The notes below the pieces were generated by a model. The model saw nothing but the letters and a program-made list of their open reading frames with translations. It was not told the origin of the DNA and ran no database searches. The position numbers and the translations under genes were made by a program. 64,000 nt of DNA from Planctomycetota bacterium (GTDB lineage Bacteria > Planctomycetota > B15-G4), in the NCBI GenBank assembly GCA_038212275.1, contig JBBQUR010000002.1:96001-160000 (forward strand). Direction: 5' to 3'. How positions within the stretch are numbered: position 1 is the first letter of the stretch; each line of letters starts with the position of its first letter. Below are positions 2,218 through 57,908 of this stretch, piece after piece.

Positions 2218-3228
2218 ATGTCCTTCGACATCGCTCTTCGGTCCTACAGCATCTCCGCATCCCCGCGGACCCGTGGCGCTGCGTCTGCCGCCGCCGCCTG
2301 GCTTTTCTTGTCCGGCGCCGCGCTCGCGCAGAGCTTCAACGTGGACTACGGCTCGAGCACTCCCGCTCCCTCCGCCTCCTACGGCGCGGCCGCAGAGCAG
2401 CCGGGGCCGTGGAATGCCATCACCGGGCTCGAGGACCGCGCCGTCGCGCTGGTGGATGTCGCGGGGCAGCAGACGGCCGTGACCATCAACCCGGACCTGC
2501 CCTTCGGCCCCGCGGCCTTCAATCACCCCGGCACCTCCGGCGACGCCGAGGCCTTGCTCGACGACTATCTGGACCTGCACTCGGTGCCGGCCGCCTTTCA
2601 TGTGGACGGCCTGCAGCCGGGCACTTACGTGGTCTACACCTACGCGTGGGCGCCGGATGAGGCCGCGTTCAAGACCTTCGTCACCGTGAACGGCGCCGAC
2701 ACGCAGATTGTCGGCGGCAAGTGGCCGGGCGGCCTGCGCAAGAGCATCACGCACGCGGTGCACGTCGCCGGCATCGCCGAGGGCGAGTCGCTGGACATCC
2801 AGACCTTCGGCCTGGGAAAGGGCACGCTCAACGGCCTGCAACTCGTGCGCATGGACACGGCCTTCACGGATCTCGGCGGCGGACTCGAGGGCGAGTCCGG
2901 GCGGCCGGAGTTCTTCGGGCAGGGAGCGCTGACGGCGGGCACGCCGGTGACGCTCACGATCTCGCGTGCGGCGCTGCTCACGCCGGTCACGCTGGTGGCG
3001 GGCTTCGCGCGCGTGGACCTTCCGTTCAAGGGCGGCGTGCTCGTCCCCTCCCCCGACCTGATCCTGAGCCTGGGCACGACCAGCGAAGAAGGCACGCTCA
3101 CGCTCGTGACCACCTGGCCGGCCTCCGCGCCGTCGCAGACGGAGCTTTTCCTGCAGTGCTGGTTGCCGGACGCGGCCGCCATCCAGGGCGTCGCGGCGAG
3201 CAACGCGCTGAAACTCTCGGTGCCGTGA
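2218..3228 (+). CDS. Secreted protein: jelly-roll-like domain plus conserved C-terminal LPFKGGVLVP domain
   Basis: AAGGAG RBS before ATG 2218; signal peptide ending ALA-Q; C-terminus homologous to those of 10843..12468 and 56946..57908. Confidence 0.8.
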   Translation: MSFDIALRSYSISASPRTRGAASAAAAWLFLSGAALAQSFNVDYGSSTPAPSASYGAAAEQPGPWNAITGLEDRAVALVDVAGQQTAVTINPDLPFGPAAFNHPGTSGDAEALLDDYLDLHSVPAAFHVDGLQPGTYVVYTYAWAPDEAAFKTFVTVNGADTQIVGGKWPGGLRKSITHAVHVAGIAEGESLDIQTFGLGKGTLNGLQLVRMDTAFTDLGGGLEGESGRPEFFGQGALTAGTPVTLTISRAALLTPVTLVAGFARVDLPFKGGVLVPSPDLILSLGTTSEEGTLTLVTTWPASAPSQTELFLQCWLPDAAAIQGVAASNALKLSVP

Positions 3229-3278
3229 TCCGTCCACCCCGAGGCTGCCGCACACTCCAGGGCGCCTGGCGCCACCCG

Positions 3279-3700
3279 TCAGGCGTGCAGCCCGCCCACG
3301 CACAGGACTGAGGCGCCGACGAGATCGTCGAAGGCATTCTCGAAGGGAGTCGCGCCCATGTCGGCGGGCGTGCCGTCGGAATCGTGCGGACTGGCCGGGT
3401 TGCCGGCATCGATGCATGGCGAGGCGGGGAGCAGGCGGTCATCGTGGTTCGCGGCGCCCGAGAAGGTGCAGCCGGTGACGGCGGCGAACCCGTCGTTCAC
3501 CACCATGCCGCCGCCGCGCGCGGCGAGCGAAGCGCCCACGGAGTTCGCCGCGACCGTCCTGCCCTGCGCGTTCGCGTTGATCGTCGTGACAGCGGCGCCA
3601 CCGGTGCTCTCGATCACGAGCTGCTTGCCGAGCAGGGCGATGGTCTCGTCGTAGGTGCCGAGCGCGACGAGAATCGTGTCGGCGCGCAGAGGCGCGTGGC
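3279..3700 (-). pseudogene. Internally deleted remnant of a secreted right-handed beta-helix protein
   Basis: GTYDETIALLGKQLVIESTGGAAVTTINAN (typical N-terminus) joined almost directly to SPCIDAGNP..DSDGTPADMGA (typical C-terminus), then ENAFDDL; no signal peptide or credible start. Confidence 0.6.
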
Positions 3701-3860
3701 GCGAGCGATGATGACCGCGTGTTGCAGCGCGAAACTGTCGTGCTCGACGCAGGCGAAGAACGCTCGCTGCGTTGGCCCGCCGGCGAGCCGTGAAGCCGGG
3801 CCCTGCTCCGGCGGGCCGCTGCATGGCGGCCCCCGCGCATGAACGCTAGAGTGTCCTCCG

Positions 3861-3975
3861 TTCGCTAGGGGTGTGAGCCACGGGCAGCGTCGCGCGGGAA
3901 GGCGTGGCGAGGGCACGCGGCGCACTGAGATCAAACCCTTGGAACCTGATCAGCGCGAGCTGCGGAGGGAAGCGG
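3861..3975 (+). promoter_or_regulatory. TPP riboswitch
   Basis: CTAGGGGTG...CTGAGA..ACCCTTGGAACCTGATC...GCGGAGGGAAG directly upstream of thiC; TTCCCTCC near 3995 can pair with the GGAGGGAA strand (expression platform). Confidence 0.9.
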
Positions 3976-4044
3976 GCACGGACAGCGTGCGGCGTTCCCT
4001 CCTCGCGTGCCGATCAGCGCACGCCGTCACGGAGCACGAAACCC

Positions 4045-5892: not shown

Positions 5893-5942
5893 CGGCCGCC
5901 CCCCCGCGCCGGCCCCACCGCGCCGGCCTTGGACATCTCCGC

Positions 5943-6296
5943 ATGACCCCAGCTGAATCCGCCCTGCCCCTCGCCGACCAGGAGTGCGTGCCCTGCAAGG
6001 GCGGCGTGCCGCCGCTGACGCCCGCGCTTCTCGAGCCGCTCGCGAAGCAGCTCCCCGAGTGGACGCTCGTGAAGGCGCACCACCTGGAGCGCGAGTTCGG
6101 CTTTCCGGACTTCGCGTCGGCGCTGGCCTTCGTGAACGAGATCGGCGCGGTGGCGGAGAAGCACAAGCATCACCCCGACCTGGAACTCGGCTGGGGTCGC
6201 GTCGGCGTGACGATCTTCACGCACAAGATCGACGGCCTCACGCAGGCCGACTTCGTGCTGGCCGCGAAAATCGACCGCCTGCAGCTTCCCCGCTGA
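5943..6296 (+). CDS. phhB: Pterin-4-alpha-carbinolamine dehydratase
   Basis: CVPCKGG, FPDFASALAFVN, HHPDL, THKIDGLTQADFVLAAKID. Confidence 0.93.
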   Translation: MTPAESALPLADQECVPCKGGVPPLTPALLEPLAKQLPEWTLVKAHHLEREFGFPDFASALAFVNEIGAVAEKHKHHPDLELGWGRVGVTIFTHKIDGLTQADFVLAAKIDRLQLPR

Positions 6297-6352
6297 CCGC
6301 CAGCGAGTCCCTCGACCTCCCCCCATCTCGTCGCACCAGCGCACGGAGTCCC

Positions 6353-6751: not shown

Positions 6752-6863
6752 CACCCCCGGCGTGAGCAGCGCCCTCGGCGTGAGCGGTGCGAGCGAGACA
6801 ACAGCTGCCAGAAGTCGCGACGAGGCGTCGCGACACCTCATCACGCGGCTCGCTCGGACACCC

Positions 6864-7215: not shown

Positions 7216-9798
7216 ATGCCCCCGCTGCCGCGATTCCCGTTGCCGCTCCGCAGGTCTCGCACCGGGCTGACTGCCTTGCTCGTGACGTGCTGTGCGCTTG
7301 CGATGTCGACGCACGTGGCGGCGCACGTGCTGGTGCAGGCCGCGCGGCCTGGCAGCGGCCGAGTCGCCCCGCATGACGTGCTCGACGCGCCCCTCCGGGA
7401 AGCGCTGGCCGCCGCACGCAGCGTCGCAGCGCCGTCGCAACTCCCGGTCTATCTCGTGATGGTTGAGCAGCTCGACGGTGGGCGCGTCGCGGAGTCGCTC
7501 GGCGGCGTGCCGCAGAACGCGCGCCGCGCCGCCGTCATCTCGCGCCTGAAGCAGCACGCGGCGACAACACAGTCTGCCGTGCGTGCGGCGCTCGCCTCGG
7601 CGCAGGCGGCGGGCCGTGCGGGCAGCGTTCAGTTGCTGTGGATGGGCAACGCCGTGGTCTTCACCGCGCAACCCGACGTCATCGAGGCCCTGGCCGCACT
7701 GCCCGGCGTCGATCGCATCCGCCTCAACCTGGATCCGGACCCGTCGCAGGTGCAGGACGCCGTGTCGACGCCGCTCGCTGCCGCACCGGCCCGCGCGCCG
7801 ATGCCGGGGCCTGCGATCGCGCCCATGCCCGCACCGGCGCCCATGCCCGCACCGGCGCCTGTCGCACCGGCGGCCATCGCGGCGACGCTGGGGACGGCGC
7901 CCTATCCTTTTGCCGACGACTTCGAGTCGGGGACGCTGCAGCCGTGGTGGACGGTGGCGACGACGGGCAGCGGCTACGCGACGGTCAGCACGGCCAACGG
8001 GCCGGTGAACACCTGGCATGTGCTCATGGCCACGTCGGTGGACGGCGTGGATTCCACCGCGAGCCTCACGCTCTGCCTGAACCTGCTGGGCCAGTCCGAC
8101 GTCGGCATCCGCTTCCAGCACAAGTCGTTCAACGACGACGCCGACGCGCAGGACGGCGTCTTCGTCAGCACGGACGGCGTCACCTGGAAGCTCGCGCTCT
8201 CGCTGCAGAACGGCACGGCGACGTACTCGCCGAAGACCATCAACCTCGACGTGGTCGCGGCCTCGCTCGGCCTCTCCTACACGAGCAGCTTCTTCGTGCG
8301 CTTCCAGTGGCACGACAACTTCAACATTCCGTCGGACGGCTTCGGCTTCGACAACTTCGAGATCGGCCCGGGCCTCTACGTGCCGCCGCCGGCGCTTCCC
8401 GAGGCCAACCTCGTCGCGCTCCAGGCCCCGCAACTCTGGGAGCTCGGCTATCGCGGCGAGGGCGTACTCGTCGGCACCATCGACTCGGGCGTGCTCATCA
8501 CGCACCCGGACCTCGTGCACCGCATCTGGAACAACCCGGGTGAGATCGCGGGCAACGGCCTCGACGACGACGCCAACGGCTTCATCGACGACGTGCACGG
8601 CTGGGACTTCATCAACGGCACCGGCAACGTGGTCTCGACCGACCCGCACGGCACGAGCACGGCCGGCATCGTGGTGGGCGACGGCGGCGGCGGCAAGGCC
8701 ACCGGCATGGCGCCCGGCGCGACGCTGCTCGTCTGCAAGGTGCTGAGTCAGGCCAGCTACTGGCTTGCACAGCAGTACTGCATGCAGGAAGGCGTGGGCG
8801 TCATCACCTCCAGCTACAGCTACAAGTGGGCCGACGTCCCGCAGCCCGACTACCACATGTTCCGGCAGCTCACGGAGATGGAACTCGCGGCCGGCGTGAT
8901 CCACGCCAACTCGATCGGCAACCAGGGCTCGCTGCTGTCGAGCTACCCGGTGCCGTTCAACATCTCGACGCCCGGCAACTGTCCATCACCCTTCAGGAAC
9001 CCGCTGGACGTGGTGGGCGCACAGAGTTCCGTGCTCGGTTGCGGCGGCATCCAGCTGCCGCTGGACAGTCTCTACCTGCCTTCGGGCCGCGGCCCCGCCG
9101 CGTGGGACAACATCACGCAGTACAACCCGGCCTACGCCTACGCGCAGAACAGCGCCTCCTGGGATTATCCGTACGGCGGCTTCTCCGGCACGGGCCCCGG
9201 CCTGCTCAAGCCCGACCTCATGGCCTACGCGACGAACGTGACCACGGCCACCATCAGCACGACGTACACGATCTTCTCGGGCACGTCGGCGGCGACGCCG
9301 CATCTGGGCGGCGCGCTCGCCCTGCTCCGCCAGGTGCAGCCCGCGGCGCTGCCGCGCCACCTCGCCGCCGCGCTCGAGCTCTCCGCGAAGGACCTCGGCG
9401 TACCGGGCAAGGACAACCTCTTCGGCTCGGGCCGCATCTCGGCCTTCGACGCCGCGCGCCGGCTGCGCATTCTCGGCCGCATGAGCGACATCACGCCCGC
9501 GCTCGGCCACTCCGTCACTCTGGAACTCTTCGGCTACCCGTCGGCGCAGCTCTACGGCTTCTTCGCCGCGTCGATCTTCGACGGGGCCGGCGCCTTCAAC
9601 CTCTTGGCGCCGTTCTTCGCGCTCGGCCTGCCGCCGCTCGGGCCGGCGGGCACCGCGTCGGTGCCGCTGCTGCTGCCCAATGACCCGATCCTGGTCGGCG
9701 TCACCGTGTGGTTCCAGTTCGCTGCCAAGAACAATGACGCGACGTGGGGCAGCGGCGCGCTCATCTCCGTGCCCGAGGCGATCACGATCAAGCCCTGA
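7216..9798 (+). CDS. Secreted S8 (subtilisin-family) serine protease with propeptide, inserted jelly-roll domain and C-terminal domain
   Basis: Catalytic triad IDSG / HGT / GTSAATP; NPGEIAGNGLDDDANGFIDDVHGWDF loop; LKPDL; signal peptide. Confidence 0.92.
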   Translation: MPPLPRFPLPLRRSRTGLTALLVTCCALAMSTHVAAHVLVQAARPGSGRVAPHDVLDAPLREALAAARSVAAPSQLPVYLVMVEQLDGGRVAESLGGVPQNARRAAVISRLKQHAATTQSAVRAALASAQAAGRAGSVQLLWMGNAVVFTAQPDVIEALAALPGVDRIRLNLDPDPSQVQDAVSTPLAAAPARAPMPGPAIAPMPAPAPMPAPAPVAPAAIAATLGTAPYPFADDFESGTLQPWWTVATTGSGYATVSTANGPVNTWHVLMATSVDGVDSTASLTLCLNLLGQSDVGIRFQHKSFNDDADAQDGVFVSTDGVTWKLALSLQNGTATYSPKTINLDVVAASLGLSYTSSFFVRFQWHDNFNIPSDGFGFDNFEIGPGLYVPPPALPEANLVALQAPQLWELGYRGEGVLVGTIDSGVLITHPDLVHRIWNNPGEIAGNGLDDDANGFIDDVHGWDFINGTGNVVSTDPHGTSTAGIVVGDGGGGKATGMAPGATLLVCKVLSQASYWLAQQYCMQEGVGVITSSYSYKWADVPQPDYHMFRQLTEMELAAGVIHANSIGNQGSLLSSYPVPFNISTPGNCPSPFRNPLDVVGAQSSVLGCGGIQLPLDSLYLPSGRGPAAWDNITQYNPAYAYAQNSASWDYPYGGFSGTGPGLLKPDLMAYATNVTTATISTTYTIFSGTSAATPHLGGALALLRQVQPAALPRHLAAALELSAKDLGVPGKDNLFGSGRISAFDAARRLRILGRMSDITPALGHSVTLELFGYPSAQLYGFFAASIFDGAGAFNLLAPFFALGLPPLGPAGTASVPLLLPNDPILVGVTVWFQFAAKNNDATWGSGALISVPEAITIKP

Positions 9799-10842: not shown

Positions 10843-12468
10843 TCACGGCACCTTGCTGGTGATCGCGTTCGTCGCGGAGTATCCGTGCGGCGCCGCACGG
10901 TCTTGGACCCAGGCCTGGTAGGTGATCGGGAATCCGGACGGCACGCCACCGGGCCAGAATCCCTGGAGCGCCAGCGCGCCCGAGGCGTCGGTGAGCAGGC
11001 CGAGCAGCACGAGGTCCGGTGCGGGCACGAGCACGCCGCCCTTGAAGGGCAGCTTGATCTGCACGAGCGAGATGCACACGGCCAGGTCGGACTGCGGCTG
11101 CGCATCGTCGATCTGCAGCGAGAAGCCCGAGCCCGTGGCGAGCGCGCCGGAACCGACGAGGTCGGGCGCCCCGAGCGCGCCGGCAAAGGCGCTGCCGACC
11201 CAGGTCCACGCCGCCGGCTGCGTCTTCACGACGCAGGTCGCGCCCTGCACGGCGAACGAACCCACCTTGTTGTTCGGCGCGCCCACGAGCATGAGCGCTC
11301 CGTCCAGGCCCAGCGTGGCGCCGAACTGTCCGGCGGGGCCGATCTCGGCCGGCGCGGCGAGCTGCTCGCCGGCCCAGGAGCCATTGCCGAATCGGAAGAG
11401 CCACGCCGAGCCGACATCGATGCCTGACGTGCCGACATCGTCCCTGGGCGCTCCCACGACGATCACGTTGCCGTCGACCTCGACGCTCGTTCCGAAAGCG
11501 TCGCCCGGAAGGCCGTCCCCGGCGAGCAGCGTCTGCTCCTGGACGAAGCTCGTGCCGTGGTCGCGATAGACCCAGGCGGTGCCGCGGCCGAGGTTGCCGA
11601 ACGGCCCGGCATCCGGTGCGCCCGCGACGATGACCGGCCCATCGACGGCGACCGAGGTCCCGAACGAATCCAGCGACATGCCGCCGGAAGGCAGCAGCTT
11701 CTGGCGCTCCACCCACGCACCCGCCACGCGGCGGAACACGTAGACCGCGCCGTTGTCGGTCGCGCCGTTGCTGTCTTCTTCCGGCGCGCCGACGACGATC
11801 ACGTCGCCATCGATGTCCACGCTTGCGCCGAAGCGGTCCCCCGCGAGGCCGTCCGACGCGAAGAGCTGCTGCTCCAGCACGAAGGAGCTGCCGTCGAAGC
11901 GATACACGTAGACCTCTCCCTGCTGGCTCTTCAGCGCGACGTCCTTGGCCGCGACGCCGACCACGATGCGGTCCTGCGTCAGGGCGAAGCGCCCGCCGAA
12001 GACGTCGAAGGAGGCGGCGTCCACCGCCGTCAGGGTCTGGCGCCACGTCCACACGCCGTCGATGCGGCGGTAGATCGCGATCGCGCCCGCGGAGTTCTTG
12101 AGGAGCAGCTTGCGGCCCGGCACGCCGACGACGCACAGGTCGCCACGCAGGCCGACCTGGCTGCCGTAGGCATCGAGCGACACGGGATCCACCAGCGTGA
12201 GCTTCTGCTCGGACTCCCAGGAGCTGCCATCCCAGCGACGGACGTAAGCTGCACCGCCGTCCGCAGCGAGGCCGATGTTCGCGCCGCTGGCGCCGATGAT
12301 CGCGGCATCGCCGTCGAGGCTCACGCTCTGCCCGAACTTGTCGCCGCCCGCTCCGTCGCTCGCCGTCAGCGTGTCCGTGGCCTGGGCCCGGACCGCCGGT
12401 GCGCCGAAAAGCAGCACCGCAGCCAGGGATGCGCCCAGCATGGGCACGAAGGAACCGGCTGAAAGCAT
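10843..12468 (-). CDS. Secreted FG-GAP repeat beta-propeller with conserved C-terminal LPFKGGVLVP domain
   Basis: Seven repeats of the type DxFGxSVxxDGDxxxVGAP...GxxYV; signal peptide VRA-Q. Confidence 0.9.
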   Translation of the reverse strand: MLSAGSFVPMLGASLAAVLLFGAPAVRAQATDTLTASDGAGGDKFGQSVSLDGDAAIIGASGANIGLAADGGAAYVRRWDGSSWESEQKLTLVDPVSLDAYGSQVGLRGDLCVVGVPGRKLLLKNSAGAIAIYRRIDGVWTWRQTLTAVDAASFDVFGGRFALTQDRIVVGVAAKDVALKSQQGEVYVYRFDGSSFVLEQQLFASDGLAGDRFGASVDIDGDVIVVGAPEEDSNGATDNGAVYVFRRVAGAWVERQKLLPSGGMSLDSFGTSVAVDGPVIVAGAPDAGPFGNLGRGTAWVYRDHGTSFVQEQTLLAGDGLPGDAFGTSVEVDGNVIVVGAPRDDVGTSGIDVGSAWLFRFGNGSWAGEQLAAPAEIGPAGQFGATLGLDGALMLVGAPNNKVGSFAVQGATCVVKTQPAAWTWVGSAFAGALGAPDLVGSGALATGSGFSLQIDDAQPQSDLAVCISLVQIKLPFKGGVLVPAPDLVLLGLLTDASGALALQGFWPGGVPSGFPITYQAWVQDRAAPHGYSATNAITSKVP

Positions 12469-15262: not shown

Positions 15263-15405
15263 GCATCCATGCTGACAGCCCGGCGGGGCGGACGGCAACC
15301 GCTCCCGCGAGCGCCGGGCGGTTATGCTCCGCGCCCCCGCGTCGGCCCCGCTTCGGGGCGACCCCGCGACGCGGCGACCGCCGGCTGCTCCGGGAGCGCG
15401 CGCAC

Positions 15406-20963: not shown

Positions 20964-22475
20964 ATGCTTGCCACCCTCGTGACCCTTGCGGCGACTGCTT
21001 TCGCCACGCTTGCCGTCGTCCCCGCCGCGCAGGCCGCCGACCTCACGCTCTCCAAGGTGGGCGGCGGCGCGCTGCAGACCACGACGCTCACGCTCAAGGG
21101 CAACCCGGGCACCAGATACCTGCTGCTCGTGTCGCCGTACGAACAGGCCGAGCAGATCAAGCCGGGTGTCGTGCTGGAGATCCCGACGGCATTCATCGAC
21201 CTCTCGGTCACGGTGCCGGGCTTTGCCGGCGCGCTCTCCGCGGGCGGCGTCGCGCAGGCCAGCTTCGTGCTGCCGGCGGACCCGGTGATCCTCGGCCTCG
21301 TGCTCTCCTTCCAGGCGCTGGACTTCCAGCCGATCACGCAGGCGTCCAACCTCGTGCGCCTGACGCCGGCGCTGCCGGGCAGCTTCGAGAACACGCTGGG
21401 CGACGCGGCGCTGCCGCTGGCCGGCGGCGCGGCCATCGAGCGGGCCGACGGCACGGTGCTGCTCGTCGGCGGCTCGGGCCCGGTGACGCAGATCTACGAC
21501 AGCAATCGCGAGGAGTTCAGCGTGGGCGGCGCGTCTTTCGGCGTCGGCCTGCTCGGGCAGTCCACCGCGCTGGCGGACGGGCGCATCCTCTTCACCGGCG
21601 GCTTCGGCCTCGACGGCCAGCCGAGCACGGCCGCCGCGCTCTACGACCCCGTCACCGACACGACCACGACGCTGGCCATGCTCTTCCCGCGTGCGGGCCA
21701 CGGCGCGTCGCTCATGCCGAGCGGCAAGGTGCTCATCACCGGCGGTTTCTCGGCCTTCGCGCTGACCGACGTCCTTGCGCTGCTGCAGGGCATTCAGGGC
21801 AGCACGGAGATCTTCGATCCCGCCACGCTGGCGTTCACCGCGGGCCCGACGCTGCTCGAGCCGCGCGCGCTGCACACCTCCACGACGACCTCCACCGGCC
21901 GTGTGCTCATCGCCGGCGGCCTCACGCTGGTGCCCATCGTGAACATCCCGACGGTGTCGGCCACGGCGTACAACTTCAACCCGGCCAACAACTCCTTCGG
22001 CCTGCCGATCTTCTTCTCCGGGGCGCGCCTCATGCACTCCGCCGTCGCGCTGGACAATGGCAAGGTGCTGCTCGTCGGCGGTCTCACTGCGGACCTCGCG
22101 GGCGTGCTCGCCTCGGGCGACCTCACGCAGATCGCGATCGGCTCCGTGGGCAACGGCCAGCTCTGGACGACCAACTTCCTCGGCGGCTCCTTCACCACCG
22201 TGCCGGGCCTGTCCGTGCCGCGTGCCGGCGCCGGTGTCGCCGCGCTGCCGGGCGGCGGCGCACTCATCGCGGGCGGCCTGCAATTCGACCTGTCGAGCGC
22301 GGCCCTCGGCCTCACGCCGCAGACGGCGTGCGACGTCTACTCGTCCGCCTCCGGCTTCGCTTCCATCGCGGACCTCGCCGCCGCGCGCACGCTCCCCGTG
22401 CTCGAGCGCCTCAACGACGGCACCGTCCTGGTGGTCGGCGGCGGCCCGCTGAGCGCGGAGATCTTCCAGCCCTGA
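20964..22475 (+). CDS. Secreted Kelch-repeat beta-propeller protein
   Basis: Signal peptide AQA-A; repeats R..H....L.DG.VL..GG....AE.YDP. Confidence 0.88.
   Translation: MLATLVTLAATAFATLAVVPAAQAADLTLSKVGGGALQTTTLTLKGNPGTRYLLLVSPYEQAEQIKPGVVLEIPTAFIDLSVTVPGFAGALSAGGVAQASFVLPADPVILGLVLSFQALDFQPITQASNLVRLTPALPGSFENTLGDAALPLAGGAAIERADGTVLLVGGSGPVTQIYDSNREEFSVGGASFGVGLLGQSTALADGRILFTGGFGLDGQPSTAAALYDPVTDTTTTLAMLFPRAGHGASLMPSGKVLITGGFSAFALTDVLALLQGIQGSTEIFDPATLAFTAGPTLLEPRALHTSTTTSTGRVLIAGGLTLVPIVNIPTVSATAYNFNPANNSFGLPIFFSGARLMHSAVALDNGKVLLVGGLTADLAGVLASGDLTQIAIGSVGNGQLWTTNFLGGSFTTVPGLSVPRAGAGVAALPGGGALIAGGLQFDLSSAALGLTPQTACDVYSSASGFASIADLAAARTLPVLERLNDGTVLVVGGGPLSAEIFQP
22404..22461 (+). repeat. 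Left direct repeat (3' end of Kelch gene) of the hipBA block
   Basis: 52/58 identical to 25374..25431. Confidence 0.85.
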
Positions 22476-34579: not shown

Positions 34580-34630
34580 GTCGCACCCCCGCGTCCCCGG
34601 TACCGGCCGTCAGCATCTCGCGTGCGCTCT

Positions 34631-37776: not shown

Positions 37777-38399
37777 GATCGAGTGAGTCCGCTGCCGCGA
37801 AGTGTGTCGAGTGCACGCGCATCGCCCGGGCGCGCCTGCACGGATGGAACACGTGCCGTAGCGGTCCGGTCTGCCGCGATCGGGACGTCAGCGTCGCTTC
37901 GCTGGCGTCCGTGGAGCGGCTCGACGCCGGGCGTCGGCCTGCTCCGGTCGCATCCACACCGATACGAACAGTGGATCACGTAGAGCGGCGGCGGTCGCGA
38001 TCGGTCCGGCGCGCTGCTCGGAGCGCAACTCACCGGCGCGGCCACGAGAGGCCGGAACGAAGGCATGCGCTCGAGGAAGGCGTGAGCCGCCCCATGATCG
38101 GCGCCCATGTCCGGCTTTGCCGGCTCGCCGACGAGGACATCCGAATCCGCGCAATGGCAGATGTCAGCTGGTCGCTCGTTGCCGAGCCGCGGGCAGCCCG
38201 AGGCCGGCGCCGCACGCTCATGCGTCGTGCCGTCTCGTTCGGCGGCGCAGCACGCGCTCGTGCGGGCCGCATGCCCGCCGGATCCTTCTTTCCCGTCGCA
38301 ATCGCACCAGCCGATGCGCCCGCCCGTGGCGATGGCCAGCACGAGCGGCGCCATCAACCAGAACGTCCACGGTCTGTGCATCAGGAAGGACGATCTCAT
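37773..38399 (-). CDS. Cys-rich hypothetical protein leading the metal-efflux operon
   Basis: Hydrophobic N-terminus; CDC, CC and CHC motifs; RSRPPPLYVIHCSYRC. Confidence 0.55.
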   Translation of the reverse strand: MRSSFLMHRPWTFWLMAPLVLAIATGGRIGWCDCDGKEGSGGHAARTSACCAAERDGTTHERAAPASGCPRLGNERPADICHCADSDVLVGEPAKPDMGADHGAAHAFLERMPSFRPLVAAPVSCAPSSAPDRSRPPPLYVIHCSYRCGCDRSRPTPGVEPLHGRQRSDADVPIAADRTATARVPSVQARPGDARALDTLRGSGLTRS

Positions 38400-38505
38400 G
38401 AGGCTCGCGACACTAGCACGCAGTGCCGAGCGGCGCACATGGCTTCGGGCACTTTCCGCCGGTCACGCCTCACGTCGACGCCGAGACGGAAGGCGGCTCA
38501 CGGAC

Positions 38506-45600: not shown

Positions 45601-47949
45601 CAACCACCACAGGATCTGCCAGTCGCCCCGCACCCAGCGGTGCTGGCGGCGCGCGTGCGCGAGCACGCTGGCCGGATAGTCGTCCACGACCTCCACGTCG
45701 GTGACCAGCGCCGTGCGCGCATAGAGGCCCTCGAACAGGTCGTGCGAGAGCAGTGCGTTCTCCGGCACGCGCCCCGCGAGCGACGCGACGAAGGCGTCCA
45801 CGTCGTAGAGGCCCTTGCCGGTGTAGACACCCTCGTGGAACAGGTCCTGGTAGGTGTCGGAGACCGCCGTGGTGTAAGGGTCCACGCCGGTGTGGCCGGC
45901 GTAGGTGCGGGCGAAGAGCGAGCCGGCCGCGCTGGCCATGGTGACGCTCACGCGCGGCTGCAGGATGCCGTATCCCCCGGTCACGCGCCCCGCCACGCCG
46001 TCCACGTGCGGGCGGTTGAGCGGATGCTCGATGATGCCGATGAGTTCGCACGCCGCGTCGCGCGGCAGTCGCGTGTCCGAGTCGAGCGTGAGGCAGTAGC
46101 GCACCGACGGCAGGATGGACAGCTCGCCGACCTGCGTGGCGAAGCTCGTGTCGGTGGCGCCGCGCAGCAGCCGGTTGAACTCCTCGAGCTTGCCGCGCTT
46201 GCGCTCCCAGCCCATCCACGCGTGTTCGCGCTCGTTCCAGCGACGCTCGCGATGGAACAGGAAGAACCGGTCGGCGTGCGCCGGGCCGAAACGCCGGTTG
46301 AGGGCCTCGATGCCCGCGCGCGCCGCGTCGAGCAGCGCGGCGTCGCCGGGCAGCTGCGCCGAGTCCGCATCCACGAAGTCGCTCAGCAGCGCGAAATGGA
46401 TGCACGGATCCGTGTTGCCGAGCGCGAGCACCTCCAGATGTTCCAGCAGGTGCGCCACGCCCGACAGGTTCGTGAGCAGCGTCGGCACGACGACCATCGT
46501 GCGGGCGCTCGCGGGAATGCCCGTCTTGAAGCTCATGCGCGACAGGCGCCGCGGCGGGATCGCCCAGGCCGCGACGCGCTGCACGAGGCCGATGGCCAGG
46601 TCCGCGCAGGGCAGCAGCAGCAGCAGCGCGGCCAGCGCCATGGCGGACCGCGAGGCGCCGGCCTGCCACGCGTACCCGGCCGTCGCCGCGACCAGCAGCG
46701 CCGTCAGCAGACCGATGGGCAGCAGATACACGGGCGTCGGGTGCGCGAAGACGAAACGACGCAGCCGGCCTCGAAACTTCGGCCGACAGGCGACGTCCGC
46801 CTCGAGCCGGGCTCGCCCGCGGTCGATCAGGTGGTAGCCGACGTGCGTCGCAGCAGTCTGCGCCGCGACACTCTGCGCGGCCTGCCGTGCGCTCTCGATG
46901 GCGCGCAGCGCGACGCGCACCTGCGCCTCGCCCGTCGGCGCGGCCAGCTCCTCCACGGCCTGCCGCTGCCGGTCGCGGCTGAGGAAGTCCATCTGGCCGT
47001 AGGCGCCCGCCGGATCGCGCTGCAGCACGCGCTCCACGAGACTGACGGACTCCACGTACTTCGGCCAGTCGAGCACGGAACACAGCCGCAGGCTGGTGAT
47101 GGCGTTGGCCACCGACACCTGCGTGGCCGCCTGGCGCTGGTGCTCGCTGCGCACCTCGTCCTCCGCGGTCGCGTGCCGCGACGCCAGGTGCGCGTCGATC
47201 GCCGTGCGCACCGAGGCAAGACGCGGCCCGTACTCGCGCAGACGGTGCAGCAGCTGGACGACATACGCGGCGCCGGGCGACACCGGCAGCGAGCACGCCA
47301 GAAAGCCGCCCGCGCTCTCCAACCGCGACACGTATCCGTCCGCGGCCAGGCGCTGCCTGCGCGACTCCGTGATGCCGTCCGAGAGGCGCCGCAGGTTTTC
47401 GACGAGCGCAAGCCGCAGCATGCTCGGCCACGCCCACAGCTCGCCGATGGTGAGCGGCGCCACGCGCTGGTAGCTCTCCACGAAGAGCGTGAGTTGCTGC
47501 AGCGTCAGCCGGCTGTCGCTGTGCCGCAGCAGCTCCACCGCCATGGCATAGATGCGCGCTTCTCCGTCGTGCTCGCGCGAGGCGAGTCGCGTTAGCTCCC
47601 GGTAGTAGGTTCGCGGCAGGTTGCGCCGCACGTCCCGGATCTCGGAGGACAGCAGGTGGAAGTTGTCCAGCAGCCACTCGGCCGCCGGCGTGACGAAGCG
47701 GGAGGCGCGCACGTCGGACGCCAGCGTGAGGTAGGCCTCACGCAGGACCCGGGCGTTGTCCTCGAAGCGCGGGAAGATGTCGCGCGCGCGGCGCTCGGCA
47801 TCCAGCGTGAAGCTGGCGCCCAGCGACAGCGCACGCTCCTCGAGCCGCTCCATGCTGAGCAGTTCGTCGCGGAAGGGCTTGTCCGGTTCCGGCGCGCTCC
47901 CGCCCAGCAATCGTCGGAGGGCTCGAATCAAGGCAGCCTCCCGGGACAT
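39610..47949 (-). CDS. ndvB: Cyclic beta-1,2-glucan synthase (Cgs/NdvB/ChvB) with C-terminal GH94 phosphorylase
   Basis: [81 protein letters not shown]. Confidence 0.95.
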
Positions 47950-47999
47950 CGCGGAGCGAGCACGGAGCCACGCTGGCTCCGCAGCCCACGCATCCACAT

Positions 48000-48016
48000 A
48001 GCAAGCCGCATGCCAA
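48000..48016 (-). promoter_or_regulatory. Sigma-54 promoter of the glucan synthase gene
   Basis: Minus strand TTGGCATGCGGCTTGCT = GG-N10-GC, about 50 bp upstream of ATG 47949. Confidence 0.7.
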
Positions 48017-48221
48017 AGCCTGCGTGCCCCCGCACCGTTCGGCACGACGCGCGTGGGACCGGATGCCGGCGTCACGCGGCACCGACCGCCGCAGGTGCGT
48101 GGCGCCGCATCCCGACCGCACGCGGGTTCTACAAATCACTGCGCGCGTTGTCGCGGGCCCCCGGATCCCACCGTGCCGCCGGGGACGGCGAGGGGCGCGG
48201 CTCTCCGCACACTCTCTCGAT

Positions 48222-51258: not shown

Positions 51259-52155
51259 TCAGCGCGGAAGCAGAACGGTGTCGATCACGTGGATGATGCC
51301 GTTCGAGGCATTCACGTCAGCCGTGATGATCTGCGCGCCGTTGACGGCGAGTCCGCCGTCCTTCGCCGTGAAGGCGAGCGTGCCGCCCTGCAGACTCTTG
51401 GCGGACTTGGCCGCCGCCGCTCCGGTGGAGTCCACCCTGCCCGCGACGACGTGCAGCTTGAGGATGCCGGCGAGCTTCTCCTTGTTCTCCGGCTTGAGCA
51501 GCCCTTCGACGGTGCCCGCCGGGAGCTTGGCAAAGGCGGCATCGGTCGGGGCAAAGACGGTGAAGGGACCGCCGTCCGAAAGGGTCTCGGCCAGGCCCGC
51601 GGCCTTCGCGGCAGCGAGCAGCGTGGCGAACTGGCCTGCAGCAGCGGCCACCTCGACCACGTTCTCGTCGCTCGGCATCAGGACCTGATCGATGACGTGG
51701 ATGACGCCGTTGCTGGCCATCACGTCCGCCGTCAGCACCAGCGCGCCGTTCACGGAGACGGCGCCGCCGTCCGCCTTGAACGCGAGGCGCTCACCCTGGA
51801 GCGTCATCGCGCCGGTCTGCTTGGTGACCATCGCGGCGTCCAGCTTCCCGGGGACGACGTGGTACGTGAGGATCGCCACGAGCTTCGCCTTGTTCTCGGG
51901 CTTCAGGAGTTCCTCGACCGTGCCCCGCGGGAGCTTGGCAAAGGCTTCGTCTGTCGGCGCGAAGACGGTCAGCGGGCCGTCGGCCTTGAGGGCATCGACG
52001 AGGCCCGCGGCCTTCACGGCGGTGACGAGGGTGGTGAAATTGCCGGCACCAGCGGCGGTGTCGACGATGTCCTTGCGCTCCTGGGCTGACGCCGGACCGG
52101 AGAGCAGCGCCATGGAACCGAGCAGCGCAAACGAGATGAGTGATGGGGCATGCAT
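51259..52155 (-). CDS. Secreted protein with two fasciclin (FAS1) domains
   Basis: Two copies of [10 protein letters not shown]...L..HVV.G...ASNG.IHVID. Confidence 0.95.
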
Positions 52156-52356
52156 GATGATTTCAGGTCTCCTCTGGGACTCGATCCGGCGCTTTCGGGC
52201 ACGGGGATCGACGTCTTGGTTGTCGGATTGAAACGTTCATACCGTTCATAGCATTCGAACCTGCCGGCGCCAGCCCGGCTTCGCTATTCCATGTTTTGCA
52301 GACTATGTGGCCATTGAGGCATGGCCTCCCCCGGCCTATAAACGGTCAAAGCAACC

Positions 52357-53235
52357 ATGATCAACGAGCCACCCAAGCCCTATCTGAGCCCGGCGGAGCT
52401 TGCCGAGGTGCTGGGCCTGTCGGTCTCCACACTCAAGCGCTGGACCGACAAGGGCCTCCTGAGGGTGGAGCGCACGGCAGGCGGGCACCGTCGGATCGCC
52501 ACTCACGAGGCCCTCCGCTTCGTGCGCGAGTCGGGCCTCAAGCCCGTCCTGCCGCAGCGGCTCGGCCTCAGACTCTCGGGACTGGCCTCTGCAGAGGATG
52601 GCGCGAGTCCCGAGGCTGTCGCGAGCGCCGACGCGCACCTCGGCCAACTGCTGCTCTCGGGCAGCTCCGACGAGGCGCGGCGTTGCCTCGTGGCCGCGTT
52701 CGTGGGCGGGGTGCCGGCAGCCGTGCTGGGCGATGCCTGGGTGCGGCCGGGACTCGAGCGCGTCGGCGAACTCTGCATGCATGGACCCGACGGCATCGCC
52801 ATCGAGCACCAGGCCAGCGACGCGATCATGCGCGCCCTCGCCGAGATGCGCGCGCTCGTCGAGCCGGCGGCCAGCGCGCCGATCGCGATCGGGTGCTCGC
52901 CAGCGGGCGACCCCTACGTGATTCCCTCGGCGCTCGCGGATCTCGTGCTCGCCGTGAGCGGCTTCCGGAGCACGAGCCTCGGTGCGGACCTGCCGCGACC
53001 CGCGTTGCTGGCAGCCGTGGCGCGGATGCAACCCCGGCTCGTCTGGCTCAGCGTCTCGGTCGACGAAGCCGAGGGATGCGGGCGCGCCGCACTCGAACGC
53101 CTGGCGGCGACCCTCGGCGAGCGGGGTGCTGCCCTCGTCATCGGCGGGCGCGCGGCACCCGAACACGTCACCGGCGCGACGATGTTGCGCGACCTCGGCG
53201 CCCTGCAAGCCTTCTCGCGCGGCCTGCTCTCCTGA
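52357..53235 (+). CDS. MerR-HTH plus B12-binding-like regulator (CarH/LitR-like architecture)
   Basis: LSPAELAEVLGLSVSTLKRW..RTAGGHRR; PGLERVGE..EHQAS; SLGADLP; VIGGR. Confidence 0.85.
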   Translation: MINEPPKPYLSPAELAEVLGLSVSTLKRWTDKGLLRVERTAGGHRRIATHEALRFVRESGLKPVLPQRLGLRLSGLASAEDGASPEAVASADAHLGQLLLSGSSDEARRCLVAAFVGGVPAAVLGDAWVRPGLERVGELCMHGPDGIAIEHQASDAIMRALAEMRALVEPAASAPIAIGCSPAGDPYVIPSALADLVLAVSGFRSTSLGADLPRPALLAAVARMQPRLVWLSVSVDEAEGCGRAALERLAATLGERGAALVIGGRAAPEHVTGATMLRDLGALQAFSRGLLS

Positions 53236-53383
53236 CGGCGACGTCGCGCAGCGCTCAACCCCGGAACCGGAACCTGCGCTGGACAGGAGAGGGCAGCGAG
53301 CGCACGTTGCTCCGCGAGACACACCATGAGCAGGTCGACATGCCGTCAGCACCCACTCCGAGCCCGCTTCAGGACACATCACG

Positions 53384-54049
53384 ATGAACACCCGGGACGC
53401 GCTCTCGAAGCTGAAAGCACTGGGCAACGCCAGCGTGCTCGCGCGGAACAAGCGGAACGGCGCCGGCGACAACCAGTTCGGCGTCCAGCTCGGCGACATC
53501 CGCAAGCTGGCGACGACGATCAAGGCCAACCACGAGTTGGGGCTGGCGCTCTGGGAAACCGGGAACATCGACGCCGGGCTGCTGGCGGTGCTCCTGATCA
53601 CTCCGAAGAAGCTGTCGGGCAAGGAGCTCGATGCCATGGTGCGGTCTGCCACGTTCCCGCAGCTCGCCGACTGGCTCAACGCCTACGTCGTCAAGCAGCA
53701 CCCCGACAAGGAGGCGATGCGCGAGAAGTGGATGCAGGCGAAAGATCCCATGGCCGCCCGCGCCGGCTGGAACCTGACCGCCGAGCGCGTCGCGAGGCAG
53801 CCCGACGGTCTCGATCTCACGGCGCTCCTCGATCGCATCGAGTCCGAGATGGCAACAGCGCATCCAGCAACCCAGTGGACGATGAACAGTTGCCTCGCCC
53901 AGATCGGTATCGAGTTTCCGGCCCACCGCAAGCGCGCCCTCGCGCTTGGCGAGTCGCTGGGGATCTACCGCGACTTCCCCGTCTCGAAAGGTTGCACGTC
54001 GCCCTTCGCGCCGATCTGGATCGGGGAGATGGTGAGGCGGCAGGCTTGA
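53384..54049 (+). CDS. DNA alkylation repair protein (AlkD-like HEAT family)
   Basis: FGVQLGDIRKLA..NHELGLALWETG..QWTMN. Confidence 0.8.
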   Translation: MNTRDALSKLKALGNASVLARNKRNGAGDNQFGVQLGDIRKLATTIKANHELGLALWETGNIDAGLLAVLLITPKKLSGKELDAMVRSATFPQLADWLNAYVVKQHPDKEAMREKWMQAKDPMAARAGWNLTAERVARQPDGLDLTALLDRIESEMATAHPATQWTMNSCLAQIGIEFPAHRKRALALGESLGIYRDFPVSKGCTSPFAPIWIGEMVRRQA

Positions 54050-54173
54050 GTCACCGCCGCATGTCTCTCCATCTCACCTTGCTAAGATCAAGTCGCTCGC
54101 CCGTGGCCTGCCGCGATGCCACCGTCGTAACGACTCAGGCATCACTCCAGCAGCTCGGATCGCCCTGTGCGGC

Positions 54174-55172
54174 TTAGAGCTCGCGGTCCACGCGCTGGAG
54201 CACTTCGTCGACCAGCGTGCTGAACGGGTCCAGGTATTGCTCTCCAACATGCAGACGCGAGTCGGGAATCGGCAGGCGACTCCAGGCGAGGTAGGGCTTG
54301 AATCGTTCGACGATGTCACGTGCTCGGGATGCATTCACAACCGGCGCCACCTGCGACTGCGAGGCTTCCTGCGCCCACGTGTGCGTCGCGACGAGGAATC
54401 CGAATGCGTGACTCCAGAAGCGCCAGGGCGGGATGTCGAACGGCGCGGATGCCTCGCTGAGAACGGCGTTCTTCGCGGGGCGATAAGGATCCCAAAGCCG
54501 GAGCACGCCTGCCCAGGCGTCCTCGTCGAGCGTGTACATGGGAGGCCGATCGGCACTCGCTTCGATGAACCTGGCCAGGGACATCTCGGCGGCGGCTCTC
54601 GCCACCGAGGCACGCGAGTAGGAGACCGCCTTCGACATGACGCTCTCGGTCGCCCAGATTCCTTTCTGCTGAAGCGCTGAACTCGCTCCGATCAGGAAGG
54701 CCATGAGATCGGCCTTTGCACCGACTCCGAACCCCGCCCGCAACCGAAGCATCAGTGTGGACGGTTCCAGCAGGTGCAACTCGACTGGGCCCTTGCCTGT
54801 TCGCGCTGTTTCCTCGGAAGTGTTCCCACCTGCGAGCTTCTTCCAGCGGGCATCGCCTGCAGTCATGGCCACCGATGCAAACCAGCCCACGCCGCCCTGC
54901 AGCATCGCTTCGGGGAATGCGGTCTGGATGGTCTTCAACCGCTGCACGCTCAGCAGGCGTGCACCACGATGAGCCCACCACCACAGGACATCGCGAAGGC
55001 GCTGCTCCCGATGTCGCATGGCAAGCGATGCCAGCACCAGGGCCTCGGGGTCGATGATCGCCTGCGCCGGGCGCTCTCCCGCGACCAACCCCTCGCCCTT
55101 CAGCGCGCGCCACTGTCGCCAGCACGCACGCACCGTGGCTTCTTCCGTGCGACTAGCGACGGTCGCGTACAT
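54174..55172 (-). CDS. Hypothetical protein with an internal winged-helix-like segment; partner of the nucleotidyltransferase
   Basis: 332-aa ORF overlapping the upstream gene; IDPEAL, LRLRAGFGVGAKAD, YSRASVARAAAEM. Confidence 0.7.
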   Translation of the reverse strand: MYATVASRTEEATVRACWRQWRALKGEGLVAGERPAQAIIDPEALVLASLAMRHREQRLRDVLWWWAHRGARLLSVQRLKTIQTAFPEAMLQGGVGWFASVAMTAGDARWKKLAGGNTSEETARTGKGPVELHLLEPSTLMLRLRAGFGVGAKADLMAFLIGASSALQQKGIWATESVMSKAVSYSRASVARAAAEMSLARFIEASADRPPMYTLDEDAWAGVLRLWDPYRPAKNAVLSEASAPFDIPPWRFWSHAFGFLVATHTWAQEASQSQVAPVVNASRARDIVERFKPYLAWSRLPIPDSRLHVGEQYLDPFSTLVDEVLQRVDREL

Positions 55173-55731
55173 GGGTGATCACCCTCGCCACGGCATCGGG
55201 AAACGTCGGGGACATGTCCTGGGTTTCGACCCAGCGCCGGGCGCGCTCGAGTTCCTCGTCCGTGGGCAGGAGTGCCACCAGATCCTGTCGATGGACGCTC
55301 TGCGGCCACTGGTCCACGGACGCGATGAGCTTGAGCGTGATCAGCGCCTGGCGCCCGGCCAATCCCACTCGCAGGCCCCGGAACCGCAACCACTCGACAT
55401 CCTCGCGAATGCCGTCGGGCAGTCCGGTCTTCCACTGGGCCCCGACGGTCGCGTTGATCCAGTCAGCATCGATGTTGAAGTCGCGGGCAACGCGTTTGAT
55501 CGCGTCTTCCAGAGCAGCGCTGATCCCCGGTTGGATCCACTCATCGCCGGCATCGGAGACCACCGCGATCACATCGACGTCGTTGGTCGTGCGTTGGACC
55601 CAGCCTCGAAGGCAGAGCGCTGCACCTCCGACCACGATGACGGACGCGGTCAAACCCTGTGCTTCGAGGTGGGCACCCACCGCATCCAGGAGCCTGCGCA
55701 GCAGGAGAGCGTTGAACTCGGCGTCAGCCAT
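55153..55731 (-). CDS. DUF6036-like nucleotidyltransferase
   Basis: VIVVGGAAL...RTTNDVDV, DWIN, LKL, H.QD. Confidence 0.8.
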   Translation of the reverse strand: MADAEFNALLLRRLLDAVGAHLEAQGLTASVIVVGGAALCLRGWVQRTTNDVDVIAVVSDAGDEWIQPGISAALEDAIKRVARDFNIDADWINATVGAQWKTGLPDGIREDVEWLRFRGLRVGLAGRQALITLKLIASVDQWPQSVHRQDLVALLPTDEELERARRWVETQDMSPTFPDAVARVITHVRDRR

Positions 55732-55858
55732 GATTGATCGATAATCGGCCGAATGCGCTCAATAATCAAGCCTATTGCACCGTTTATCCAGACGAACTTG
55801 TCGCAAACGGCCGAGAAACGACCGAATCCGGCCCTACCCGCGTGTGAGGGACGCTCCT

Positions 55859-56250
55859 TTAGCCGCCCTCGCGCTCGAACTCGAAGCGCCTGGGGCTGCC
55901 GCCCTCGGTGAAGCCGATCGTGGCGCTGAGGCCATCCGCGGCCGAGAGCTCGTACACGATGCGCTTCGGGTAGTCGTGGCTCGGGTTGTCGAACACGGCG
56001 CGTGTTCCGGTCAGCTCGGTGAGCACGAACTCGGTCGGATCCGCGCCGCCGGGCTGCGCGACGTCCTCCGCATGGCGGTAGAGCCCAACCGATAAAGACG
56101 TTTCACTCCAACCCGAGGGCAACACTCACGAGCAATCGGACTGGGGCGGTGGCGCGGTCGAGGCCAGAGCCGTCGAGGCCGACGCGCTCGAGAGTGCGCC
56201 GAGGGTTGCGAGGAGTGCGAGCGCTGTGGCCAGCCGGATGCGCGTGTGCA
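55859..56250 (-). pseudogene. DUF6265-like secreted protein, disrupted
   Basis: Signal-peptide fragment (MHTRIRLATAL...) ends in a stop; C-terminal VAQPGG..TEF..AVFDNPSHDYPKRIVY retained. Confidence 0.65.
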
Positions 56251-56945
56251 TGGCGGCGACCTCATTCGAGTTGTAAGTCGTGCGGGCGGCGTGACCGCGT
56301 TGCGGCGAAGTCCGGTGGCTGGCCTGGGGGGTTGCCGCGGGGCGCACGATAACGGTTGGCGTAGCGCGCTTGCGAAGTACGAAAGCCGCCGGTGATCCTC
56401 CGGTCGGCCTCCGGCCGCCTTCCGAAGCACCAGGCTCCGTCTTCCGCACACCTCGTTTCTTGTGACCCGTGGACACCTCCATCTCTGCATTCTCCTCTCA
56501 GAGTGTGGTCCACGGAAATCGTGGGGCGGTAGGGCCAGTTCGCGCACAGAGGTGACCACTCGACAACCACGACCGGACCGACGCGACGAATGTTCAGACC
56601 TGCCTCATCCGATGTATTGCGCCTCCCCCCTCCTCCCCGTGGTGCACCATGACTTCCAGTCAAGCGGATGCCGCCGCGTCGTCACCCGACGGCACCCGCA
56701 CTTCATACTCACGACAGGATCGACGTCATGTAATCCAAACAGACGCCTGCCGCGACGAGGAAGATACCGCCGCCAGCGGACACCGACCTCGCCATAGGTT
56801 GAAGAGCGCCGCACCGTTCCGCCCGAATTCCTCGAGTCCAACGAAGATGTACTTCTTTTGGACCCGCCTGGCGGCGACAACTCGCGCTCGGCGCCGTTGT
56901 TGTCGACCAATGCGATTCTGAGACGTATGCCGGGCGCTTCGGTCA

Positions 56946-57908
56946 TCAGGGAGATGTCATCAGGACGGTGTTGGACGTCTCGAAGCCCTTGGATAGCGAA
57001 ACATCCAGGATGTAGGCCTGTGCGTAAAGGACAAAGCCCGGGGGAACATTGTCCGGCCACGAACCGCCGAACTGGGTTGAGCCACTCCCATCGGTGGTGC
57101 CGGTGAGCAAGAAGCTCGGCATGAACACCAGGGAGCAACCCTCACGTGTCAGCGTGGCCGGCTGTGTTCCCAGCATGAGGACAGTCTGGGCATTGGAAGC
57201 GGCACCCAGCAGGGAGAGGGTGACGGGCGAGAACGGCTGCAGCGTTCCGGTCGCGAAGAGTGCTGCCGGCAAGTTCGTTCCGCAGGCGTTCTCGATGGTC
57301 GTGAACACGGTAGCGCCCGCGAGATTCACGTTATCAAGATAATCAGTATCAGGCCCGGATTGATACTCGGCGCGAATGCGCAGGCCGGTGATCGCCGCCA
57401 ACGCACTCTGCATCTGCACCTTCGTGGCAGCAACTCCGCCGCTGTTGCCAATGCGCCAGCCCGCCTCGGTCAGCGGAACCACATACGAAGTCCAGGTTCC
57501 ATCGACTGCCGGGTTTGCGGGCGTATCATAAACCAGGGTGATGCCGGCCCCCACCAGGATCACGTCGTTGTTATTTGAAAACTGACTCGGAGCGCCGATG
57601 ACCTGCCGCAGATCGAACGTCAACGCCTTCCCATATGCGTCGGAGTGGTTGCCGAGAAATTTCGCGGATGCGACAAAATAAGTGACTCCACCAATCACCG
57701 CGTCCAGGATCGAGACGGTGCCGTCTGGATTTCCATCCACGGCCACCCACGTCAATGGGGAGGCGAAATCGCCGGCAGCCGTCCAACCATCCACGTCAGT
57801 GTCGAACGTGCTGCTTGCCTGAGCCATGCTGGTCGCCGACCCCAGTCCGGCGGCGAACAACATCGCGAAAAATGCAATCAACATTGTCTGTGCGAGATGC
57901 ATTCTCAT
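56946..57908 (-). CDS. Secreted laminin IV (laminin B)-like protein with the conserved C-terminal domain
   Basis: STFDTDVDGW..GNPDG..YF.A..KFLGN..AYG..L.FD...LRIRAEY..DTDYLDNV; lower GC. Confidence 0.82.
   Translation of the reverse strand: MRMHLAQTMLIAFFAMLFAAGLGSATSMAQASSTFDTDVDGWTAAGDFASPLTWVAVDGNPDGTVSILDAVIGGVTYFVASAKFLGNHSDAYGKALTFDLRQVIGAPSQFSNNNDVILVGAGITLVYDTPANPAVDGTWTSYVVPLTEAGWRIGNSGGVAATKVQMQSALAAITGLRIRAEYQSGPDTDYLDNVNLAGATVFTTIENACGTNLPAALFATGTLQPFSPVTLSLLGAASNAQTVLMLGTQPATLTREGCSLVFMPSFLLTGTTDGSGSTQFGGSWPDNVPPGFVLYAQAYILDVSLSKGFETSNTVLMTSP

Follow-up and report, generated by a model that had tools for sequence, protein, structure and literature searches.

A recurrent terminal domain on diverse exported proteins of Planctomycetota: a candidate envelope-targeting and anchoring module

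A stretch of 64,000 nucleotides from the genome of a Planctomycetota bacterium (GenBank assembly GCA_038212275.1, contig JBBQUR010000002.1, positions 96,001 to 160,000; hereafter ‘the window’, C2:96001-160000 in our contig numbering of the source genome, G000) contains genes for three exported proteins with unrelated cargo that end in a shared domain of ∼124 residues, the subject of this analysis. The source assembly comprises 4.65 Mb in 40 contigs, with a guanine-plus-cytosine (GC) content of ∼71% and a completeness of 91%. Positions below refer to the window unless a contig is named. On the plus strand, the gene at 2218..3228 (within an open reading frame (ORF) spanning 2062-3228) translates into a 336-residue exported protein, P0001/P0157, consisting of a signal peptide, a beta-rich cargo matching no Pfam or NCBIfam family, and the terminal domain; this 336-residue form, starting at the same methionine, is present in a public protein collection. 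The other two genes lie on the minus strand: P0002 (10843..12468; 541 residues) is an exported FG-GAP_2 protein (E 3.4e-69), and P0003 (56946..57908, within an ORF spanning 56946-57986) is an exported Laminin_B protein (E 5.6e-23). The corresponding domain copies, all of the core type, occupy 2854..3225 (plus strand; hidden Markov model (HMM) independent E-value (iE) 1.5e-40, model positions 2-124), 10846..11217 (minus strand; iE 7.7e-41; the sequence used for structure modelling) and 56949..57317 (minus strand; iE 4.3e-25, model positions 11-124), the last being the most divergent of the three. The P0003 gene sits in a lower-GC stretch (GC 0.61 at 56-60 kb); across 52000-60000, which also holds several ORFs without a family, GC drops to 0.61-0.66, against ∼0.71 elsewhere, and this region may be an acquired island.

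The initial annotation of the window, made without database searches, had proposed that these three tails are homologous, and pairwise alignment of the final 134 residues bears this out (38.5% identity over 122 residues, E 8e-28; 29.8% over 104, E 3e-12; 28.6% over 105, E 9e-12). The LPFKGGVLVP.PDL stretch that it had assigned to two of the proteins is present in both translations, and proline immediately precedes the stop codon in four proteins, namely the three core proteins (copy 1 of P0001 among them) and an S8 protease described below. Their cargo is as unrelated as had been claimed, with no Pfam family in the first, FG-GAP_2 in the second and Laminin_B in the third.

An HMM of the three tails was searched against the 38,109 ORFs that six-frame translation of the source genome yields at a minimum length of 60 residues, and matched 107 of them at iE≤1e-5; four rounds of rebuilding gave 107, 132, 133 and 135 ORFs, and the final model matched 141 at iE≤1e-3. 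The domain ends within five residues of the stop codon in 135 of the 141 and within 20 residues in one (a 90-residue fragment), and is N-terminal or internal in five; each protein carries a single copy, never a tandem array. About six of the 141 ORFs, which are short fragments or lack a start codon and signal peptide, are probably remnants. Two of the N-terminal cases are giant proteins encoded in tandem on another contig (C4:144061-155149, locus L018; 1297 and 1741 residues), in which the domain directly follows the signal peptide (iE 1.8e-19 and 6.7e-16) and Kelch propellers form the end; one of them additionally has a choice-of-anchor D segment and a malectin domain.

Two further proteins in the window had been suggested to carry a more distant version of the domain. 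The exported S8 subtilase P0004 (7216..9798, plus strand; Peptidase_S8 E 1.9e-33) does end in a divergent member (9493..9795), which retains the FQ motif, lacks PFKGG and finishes in proline before the stop; it is missed under default hmmsearch filters, scores E 4.4e-5 without them and an hhalign probability of 74%, and a jackhmmer search seeded with it converges on 144 ORFs of the same family via intermediates such as C29:5865-8288. The suggestion is borderline for the exported Kelch propeller protein P0005 (20964..22475, plus strand), in which a possible copy lies directly after the signal peptide (21051..21340): the main HMM gives E 0.43 and hhalign 16%, and a second HMM, in which the S8 tail was combined with the 36 most divergent members, gives E 2.5e-4, a value that is partly circular. 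Immediately upstream of the Kelch gene, 15223-20832 (plus strand) encodes a 1869-residue protein with GDSL lipase, DUF7133, F5/8 type C, cupredoxin and cytochrome c domains. The fragment near position 3330, which had been read as breaking off at the start of the domain, is a collapsed and truncated beta-helix paralogue with an internal deletion (3282..3845, minus strand): by BLASTP, two of its segments (residues 56-116 and 128-173) align with a 1000-residue paralogue (C1:259857-262856) in which the domain begins at about residue 880, the first with residues 139-199, where the beta-helix starts, and the second with residues 837-882, directly ahead of the domain. From there, where the domain would be expected to begin, the remnant continues for 15 residues and stops; it gives no significant match to the domain HMM.

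The copies are held together by a small set of strongly conserved residues. One glutamine is invariant in 135 of 135 copies, and one glycine, one proline and one aspartate are each more than 90% conserved (aspartate 92%); the lysine of PFKGG is present in 76%, and the last residue is proline in 90 of the 135, against 12.4% of 8,331 long ORFs. These positions are likewise conserved among the 150 best public representatives. DNA identity between copies does not exceed 87% (P0001 and P0002 share just 41 base pairs at 85%), which rules out recent gene conversion, so the likeness between copies reflects selection.

As the initial annotation had anticipated, the domain is not a named family, and no transmembrane helix is found in the tails. 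When the 120 copies of a source-genome alignment (A1) were scanned singly at E≤1, no Pfam family matched more than one copy and no Pfam or NCBIfam family more than two; surface-layer homology (SLH), dockerin, carbohydrate-binding module (CBM) and other named binding modules were absent from the Pfam matches, as were sorting-domain models from the combined set. No CBM or lectin family was matched in Pfam, NCBIfam or Protein Data Bank (PDB) sequences, and a profile search of the PDB sequences returned a single chance-level match (E 0.049). AlphaFold2, supplied with the paralogue alignment, predicted the domain of P0002 as an all-beta fold of 11 strands (predicted local distance difference test (pLDDT) 96.7, predicted template modelling score 0.89). 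Foldseek found nothing for this model at E≤1e-3; a wide VIA structure search gave macroglobulin and immunoglobulin (Ig)-like domains at a best Z of 8.3, a level described as common for the tool; and no chain of a type IX secretion system C-terminal domain (T9SS CTD) occurred among the Foldseek or VIA matches listed. Neighbours in the ESM Atlas are unnamed clusters from Planctomycetota. The model thus depicts a generic beta-sandwich without recognisable relative. A full-length model of P0001, whose cargo the initial annotation had labelled a jelly-roll, was built from a three-sequence alignment; at a pLDDT of 40.9 it is unusable for the cargo fold.

Bearers of the domain carry Sec-type signal peptides. 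Among 96 full-length representatives (methionine start, at least 250 residues), 77 have a signal-peptide-like start, compared with 1 of 78 internal-methionine controls; this test of called proteins replaced a crude any-start screen of six-frame ORFs, which proved over-permissive in passing 107 of 130 but also 188 of 400 controls. A lipobox-like pattern occurs in five of the 96, each time within the hydrophobic core of the signal peptide and not at the cleavage site, and a twin-arginine (Tat)-like pattern in none.

The cargo is strikingly varied. In 137 of the 141 ORFs (the other four shrank to very short pieces once trimmed to the first start codon), a Pfam family outside the domain was found at E≤1e-5 in 85, representing ∼27 kinds, and none in 52; no such family overlaps the domain. 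FG-GAP types account for 34. Other repeat and binding folds include WD40, NHL/SGL, beta-helix, DUF7948/SBBP, CHRD, Laminin_B, PD40, Kelch/TIG/malectin, sortilin/BNR, DUF642, TSP_C and ice-binding-like proteins; the enzymes include nucleases (LTD and EEP), sulfatases, GSDH dehydrogenases, a phosphoesterase, a phytase-like protein, an alpha/beta hydrolase, a metallo-beta-lactamase (MBL)-fold protein and peptidases (M10, M12, S8); redox proteins include a di-haem cytochrome c peroxidase and an MtrC-like multihaem cytochrome; and one bearer is a polytopic PMT_2 glycosyltransferase. With NCBIfam, two of the 137 are ExeM/NucH extracellular nucleases, and ten carry a ‘choice-of-anchor’ family (B, four C, D, J, L and two Q), eight of these above the curated cut-off. 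A preprint defines choice-of-anchor proteins as proteins of the cell surface that are retained there by LPXTG, PEP-CTERM or T9SS anchors (bioRxiv 10.1101/2023.03.06.531300). In the source genome, the anchor slot behind such cargo is filled by the new domain.

The domain behaves as a module. In 85 of 128 proteins, the closest other copy of it belongs to a protein whose cargo is unrelated by BLAST, and the domain has therefore been joined to new cargo many times; the nearest pairs share homologous cargo in the other 43, against 3.3% of random pairs. The domain is placed directly against its cargo, nearly always as the last domain and without a flexible linker: neither a low-complexity linker nor a conserved cleavage motif was found upstream, and the 30 preceding residues are similar in composition to the rest of the protein. 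Two architectures depart from this pattern. A signal peptide-domain-MBL fold arrangement is conserved, being present in G000 and again in 3 of the 67 homologues obtained from elsewhere; the domain therefore works without a free C-terminus. The polytopic inner-membrane PMT_2 enzyme bears the domain on a glycine-alanine tether, in a fusion kept in a relative at 44% identity; whatever the domain targets must therefore be reachable from the periplasmic side.

Beyond the source genome, the domain is abundant and, within the phylum sampled, lineage-specific, as had been suggested. A profile search of 1.84 billion cluster representatives returned 17,032 clusters at E≤1e-3, 7,868 at E≤1e-10 and 1,403 at E≤1e-30. 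Among the best 150 of the 17,032, the domain lies within three residues of the C-terminus in 146 and proline is last in 127; together with the 77 of 96 signal-peptide-like starts, this shows the enrichment at the termini of signal-peptide proteins that had been predicted. The outcomes that the initial annotation had named as speaking against it were not found, the domain being neither a characterised family nor rare nor indifferent to position. Named relatives are Planctomycetota or ‘Phycisphaerales’ metagenome-assembled genomes (MAGs), and counts run from 87 to more than 149 matches per genome.

Genome sampling covered Planctomycetota. In an even sample of the phylum, the domain was present in 82 of 401 genomes and, in the 30 families itemised, followed an all-or-none pattern (for example 10/10, 8/8, 4/4, 12/12 and 8/8 in positive families, and 0/20, 0/23, 0/11 and 0/16 in negative ones), with the proviso that a profile built from the paralogues of one genome could miss very divergent versions in the ‘negative’ families. 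It occurs in all 42 genomes of the window's class, where its expansion is uneven: one family (f104; G411-G415) has 5-14 matches per genome and the others at least 100. A MAG labelled as Pseudohongiellaceae, Gammaproteobacteria (L087/G401) has at least 149 matches, as in Planctomycetota genomes; its label or binning is probably wrong. A Solirubrobacteraceae genome has zero matches, and two of 17 loci related to one paralogue, labelled Solirubrobacteraceae and Clostridiales, have no HMM match.

A single terminal domain on many kinds of exported protein invites comparison with known sorting systems. Like T9SS CTDs, the new domain, predicted as a beta-sandwich, closes many Sec-exported proteins whose cargo is unrelated, in a single copy at the very C-terminus; it is restricted to a lineage and is present in tens to hundreds of copies per genome. 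The T9SS domains of Bacteroidota have ∼80-100 residues and 7 strands, whereas the new domain has ∼124 residues and 11 predicted strands; none of the 120 copies matches the type A (PF18962/TIGR04183, Por_Secre_tail) or type B (TIGR04131) models at E≤1, no PorV was detected in G000, and the obligatory C-terminal position of T9SS CTDs does not hold for a domain that is N-terminal or internal in 5 of 141 ORFs, precedes its cargo in one conserved family and is also borne by an inner-membrane enzyme. In cargo of the type XI secretion system (T11SS, Slam), varied N-terminal effector domains are guided to the surface by an all-beta domain of ∼120-150 residues at the C-terminus, a similar arrangement at similar size; the new domain, in contrast, is predicted to be a sandwich and not an 8-strand barrel, and Slam (PF04575) has no match in G000, an absence that is weak because the control was silent.

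PEP-CTERM/exosortase and LPXTG/sortase signals occupy the same slot behind choice-of-anchor cargo. These signals consist of a short motif, a transmembrane helix and a basic tail served by a dedicated transpeptidase, in contrast to a folded domain that lacks a transmembrane helix and commonly ends in proline, and G000 encodes neither exosortase (PF09721; control positive) nor sortase (PF04203; control positive in three Gram-positive genomes). Nor do exosortase and domain behave as complementary systems: exosortase is found in 171 of the 401 genomes, 33 of which also have the domain and 138 of which do not, with 49 genomes having the domain only and 181 neither (Fisher p 0.71, no association). 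SLH domains are helical binding modules, arranged in triplets, that hold proteins on one envelope polymer. The likeness here is one of behaviour, a position-tolerant module at either end of many kinds of exported protein, and not of sequence, no relation being found in Pfam.

Our preferred reading, which we judge close to an even call, is that a lineage-specific module here directs exported proteins to the envelope and anchors them there. Proteins with Sec-type signal peptides would first cross the inner membrane; every later step is our proposal. The folded domain would then bind something present throughout the envelope, such as a glycan, the cell wall or an abundant protein of the envelope or surface, via a conserved polar and aromatic patch formed by the invariant glutamine in an aromatic-Gln-x-aromatic strand, the nearly invariant aspartate, the PFKGG lysine and a Ser-Asn pair. 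Enzymes, adhesin-like repeats and cytochromes might in this way be held at one place rather than diffusing off. So acting, the domain would fill the slot taken elsewhere by LPXTG, PEP-CTERM or T9SS domains, in a mode closer to an SLH-type non-covalent anchor than to a cleaved export signal. The N-terminal copies, the inner-membrane fusion and the invariant polar and aromatic residues favour such a binding module over a strictly C-terminal export signal. The initial annotation had proposed a secretion or surface-attachment signal: a shared targeting or anchoring domain is well supported, whereas a secretion signal is weakened by the N-terminal family, by the inner-membrane copy, and by searches that found no translocon or processing enzyme.

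Several observations weigh against an envelope-binding module. The grouping of the conserved residues into one patch is an assumption. Its fold is uninformative on binding, the structural matches being generic and Ig- or macroglobulin-like only (Z 8.3, no Foldseek hit at E≤1e-3). Just 5 of 141 ORFs depart from the C-terminal position, only two genomes have the PMT_2 fusion, and the extreme C-terminal preference and the terminal proline (90/135 copies and 127/150 representatives, against a 12% background) would suit a C-terminal signal as well.

Two further readings assign the domain to an undiscovered system. One, which we regard as doubtful, is that the domain is the cargo tag of a Planctomycetota surface-sorting system, a functional counterpart of T9SS or the sortases that would have a dedicated receptor, translocon or attachment enzyme; if true, each cell would display on its surface more than 100 enzymes, adhesins and cytochromes for extracellular electron transfer by this route. 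The other, unlikely in our estimation, is that it is a true C-terminal secretion signal of an undiscovered T9SS-like outer-membrane system, whose translocon would recognise the domain before it is removed or used for covalent attachment. Such a signal would account for the terminal position in 135/141 ORFs and 146/150 representatives with a conserved last residue, for the all-or-none distribution in every itemised family, for cargo of kinds that are surface-exposed elsewhere, and for counts of 87 to more than 149 matches per genome, similar to T9SS cargo numbers. It is difficult to reconcile with a conserved protein family in which the domain is N-terminal, with a copy on an inner-membrane enzyme that cannot leave the cell, with the lack of both a conserved cleavage motif and a linker before the domain, and with the failure of all 120 copies to match T9SS domain models.

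The search for machinery gave nothing convincing. PorV (NF033710) has no match in G000, an assembly 91% complete, with a positive control in B. thetaiotaomicron; SprA (TIGR04189) and the C25 peptidase (PF01364) likewise have none, although their controls were silent and, as for Slam, the absence is weak. A PorU-like role in processing was considered for the S8 protease and rejected, its distribution being too patchy (strong orthologues, E<1e-60, in 7 of 22 domain-positive and 0 of 19 domain-negative panel genomes). The PMT_2-domain fusion was rejected as core machinery, since the enzyme part has any match in just 24 of 401 genomes; strong matches are confined to four (G322, G191, G331, G271), any match is found in 2 of 10 sampled genomes of the window's own family (f1; G000 uncounted), and the fusion itself occurs in 2 of the 12 loci read (G000 and G322). 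Recurrent neighbours within 4 kb of domain genes in G000 were Ser/Thr kinase-tetratricopeptide repeat proteins (13 of 30 paralogues, p 0.008) and planctomycete-type extracytoplasmic function (ECF) sigma factors, which are regulators and were set aside as machinery; they suggest local regulation of the domain genes. In the searches made, no translocon or processing enzyme was found for the domain.

Less probable again is an ordinary ligand-binding or spacer module for external substrates or particles, CBM-like or adhesin-like and with no role in placement on the cell. A beta-sandwich with conserved aromatic and polar residues is compatible with this view, as are the many cargos that are hydrolases or adhesin-like repeats, but cytochromes, cytochrome c peroxidase, proteases, nucleases, sulfatases and a membrane glycosyltransferase have no substrate in common, the domain is almost always terminal and never in tandem, and it matches no CBM or lectin family. 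Most improbable of all is a self-association module knitting a surface lattice or a covalently cross-linked coat, for example via the invariant glutamine and conserved lysine: weak Foldseek matches to adhesin domains with intramolecular ester bonds (ranks 5, 7, 8 and 25) all fall below significance (E>1e-3), the lysine is present in 76% of copies only, no positive evidence was obtained, and a homodimer prediction for two copies with alignment A1 scored 0.01 (mark 0.42), which is evidence in neither direction.

Full-text literature searches yielded no published description of such a domain, as judged from the opening lines of the abstracts, and public annotation of its bearers reads ‘hypothetical’ or gives the cargo name only. 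The placement of proteins in the unusual planctomycete envelope is largely unexplained, and here one unnamed domain marks ∼3-4% of a genome's genes. With a Pfam or NCBIfam model, thousands of proteins would at once gain an annotation as envelope-targeted, and the domain offers a handle for experiments aimed at its receptor or machinery. Its presence on sulfatases, proteases, nucleases and MtrC-like cytochromes makes it relevant to the breakdown of polymers and to extracellular electron transfer in soils and sediments.

Three other features of the window lie on the minus strand. A gene for a HipA-like kinase toxin (HipA_C and Couple_hipA) occupies 22521-23777. A copper-handling cluster at 32231-38438 comprises a P-type ATPase with HMBD and YHS domains, a multicopper oxidase with a C-terminal HMBD, an outer-membrane efflux protein and a small ORF of no assigned function. 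Finally, 39610-48075 encodes a 2821-residue protein with GH94 supersandwich, GH94 catalytic and glucoamylase-like domains, an architecture like that of cyclic beta-1,2-glucan synthase.

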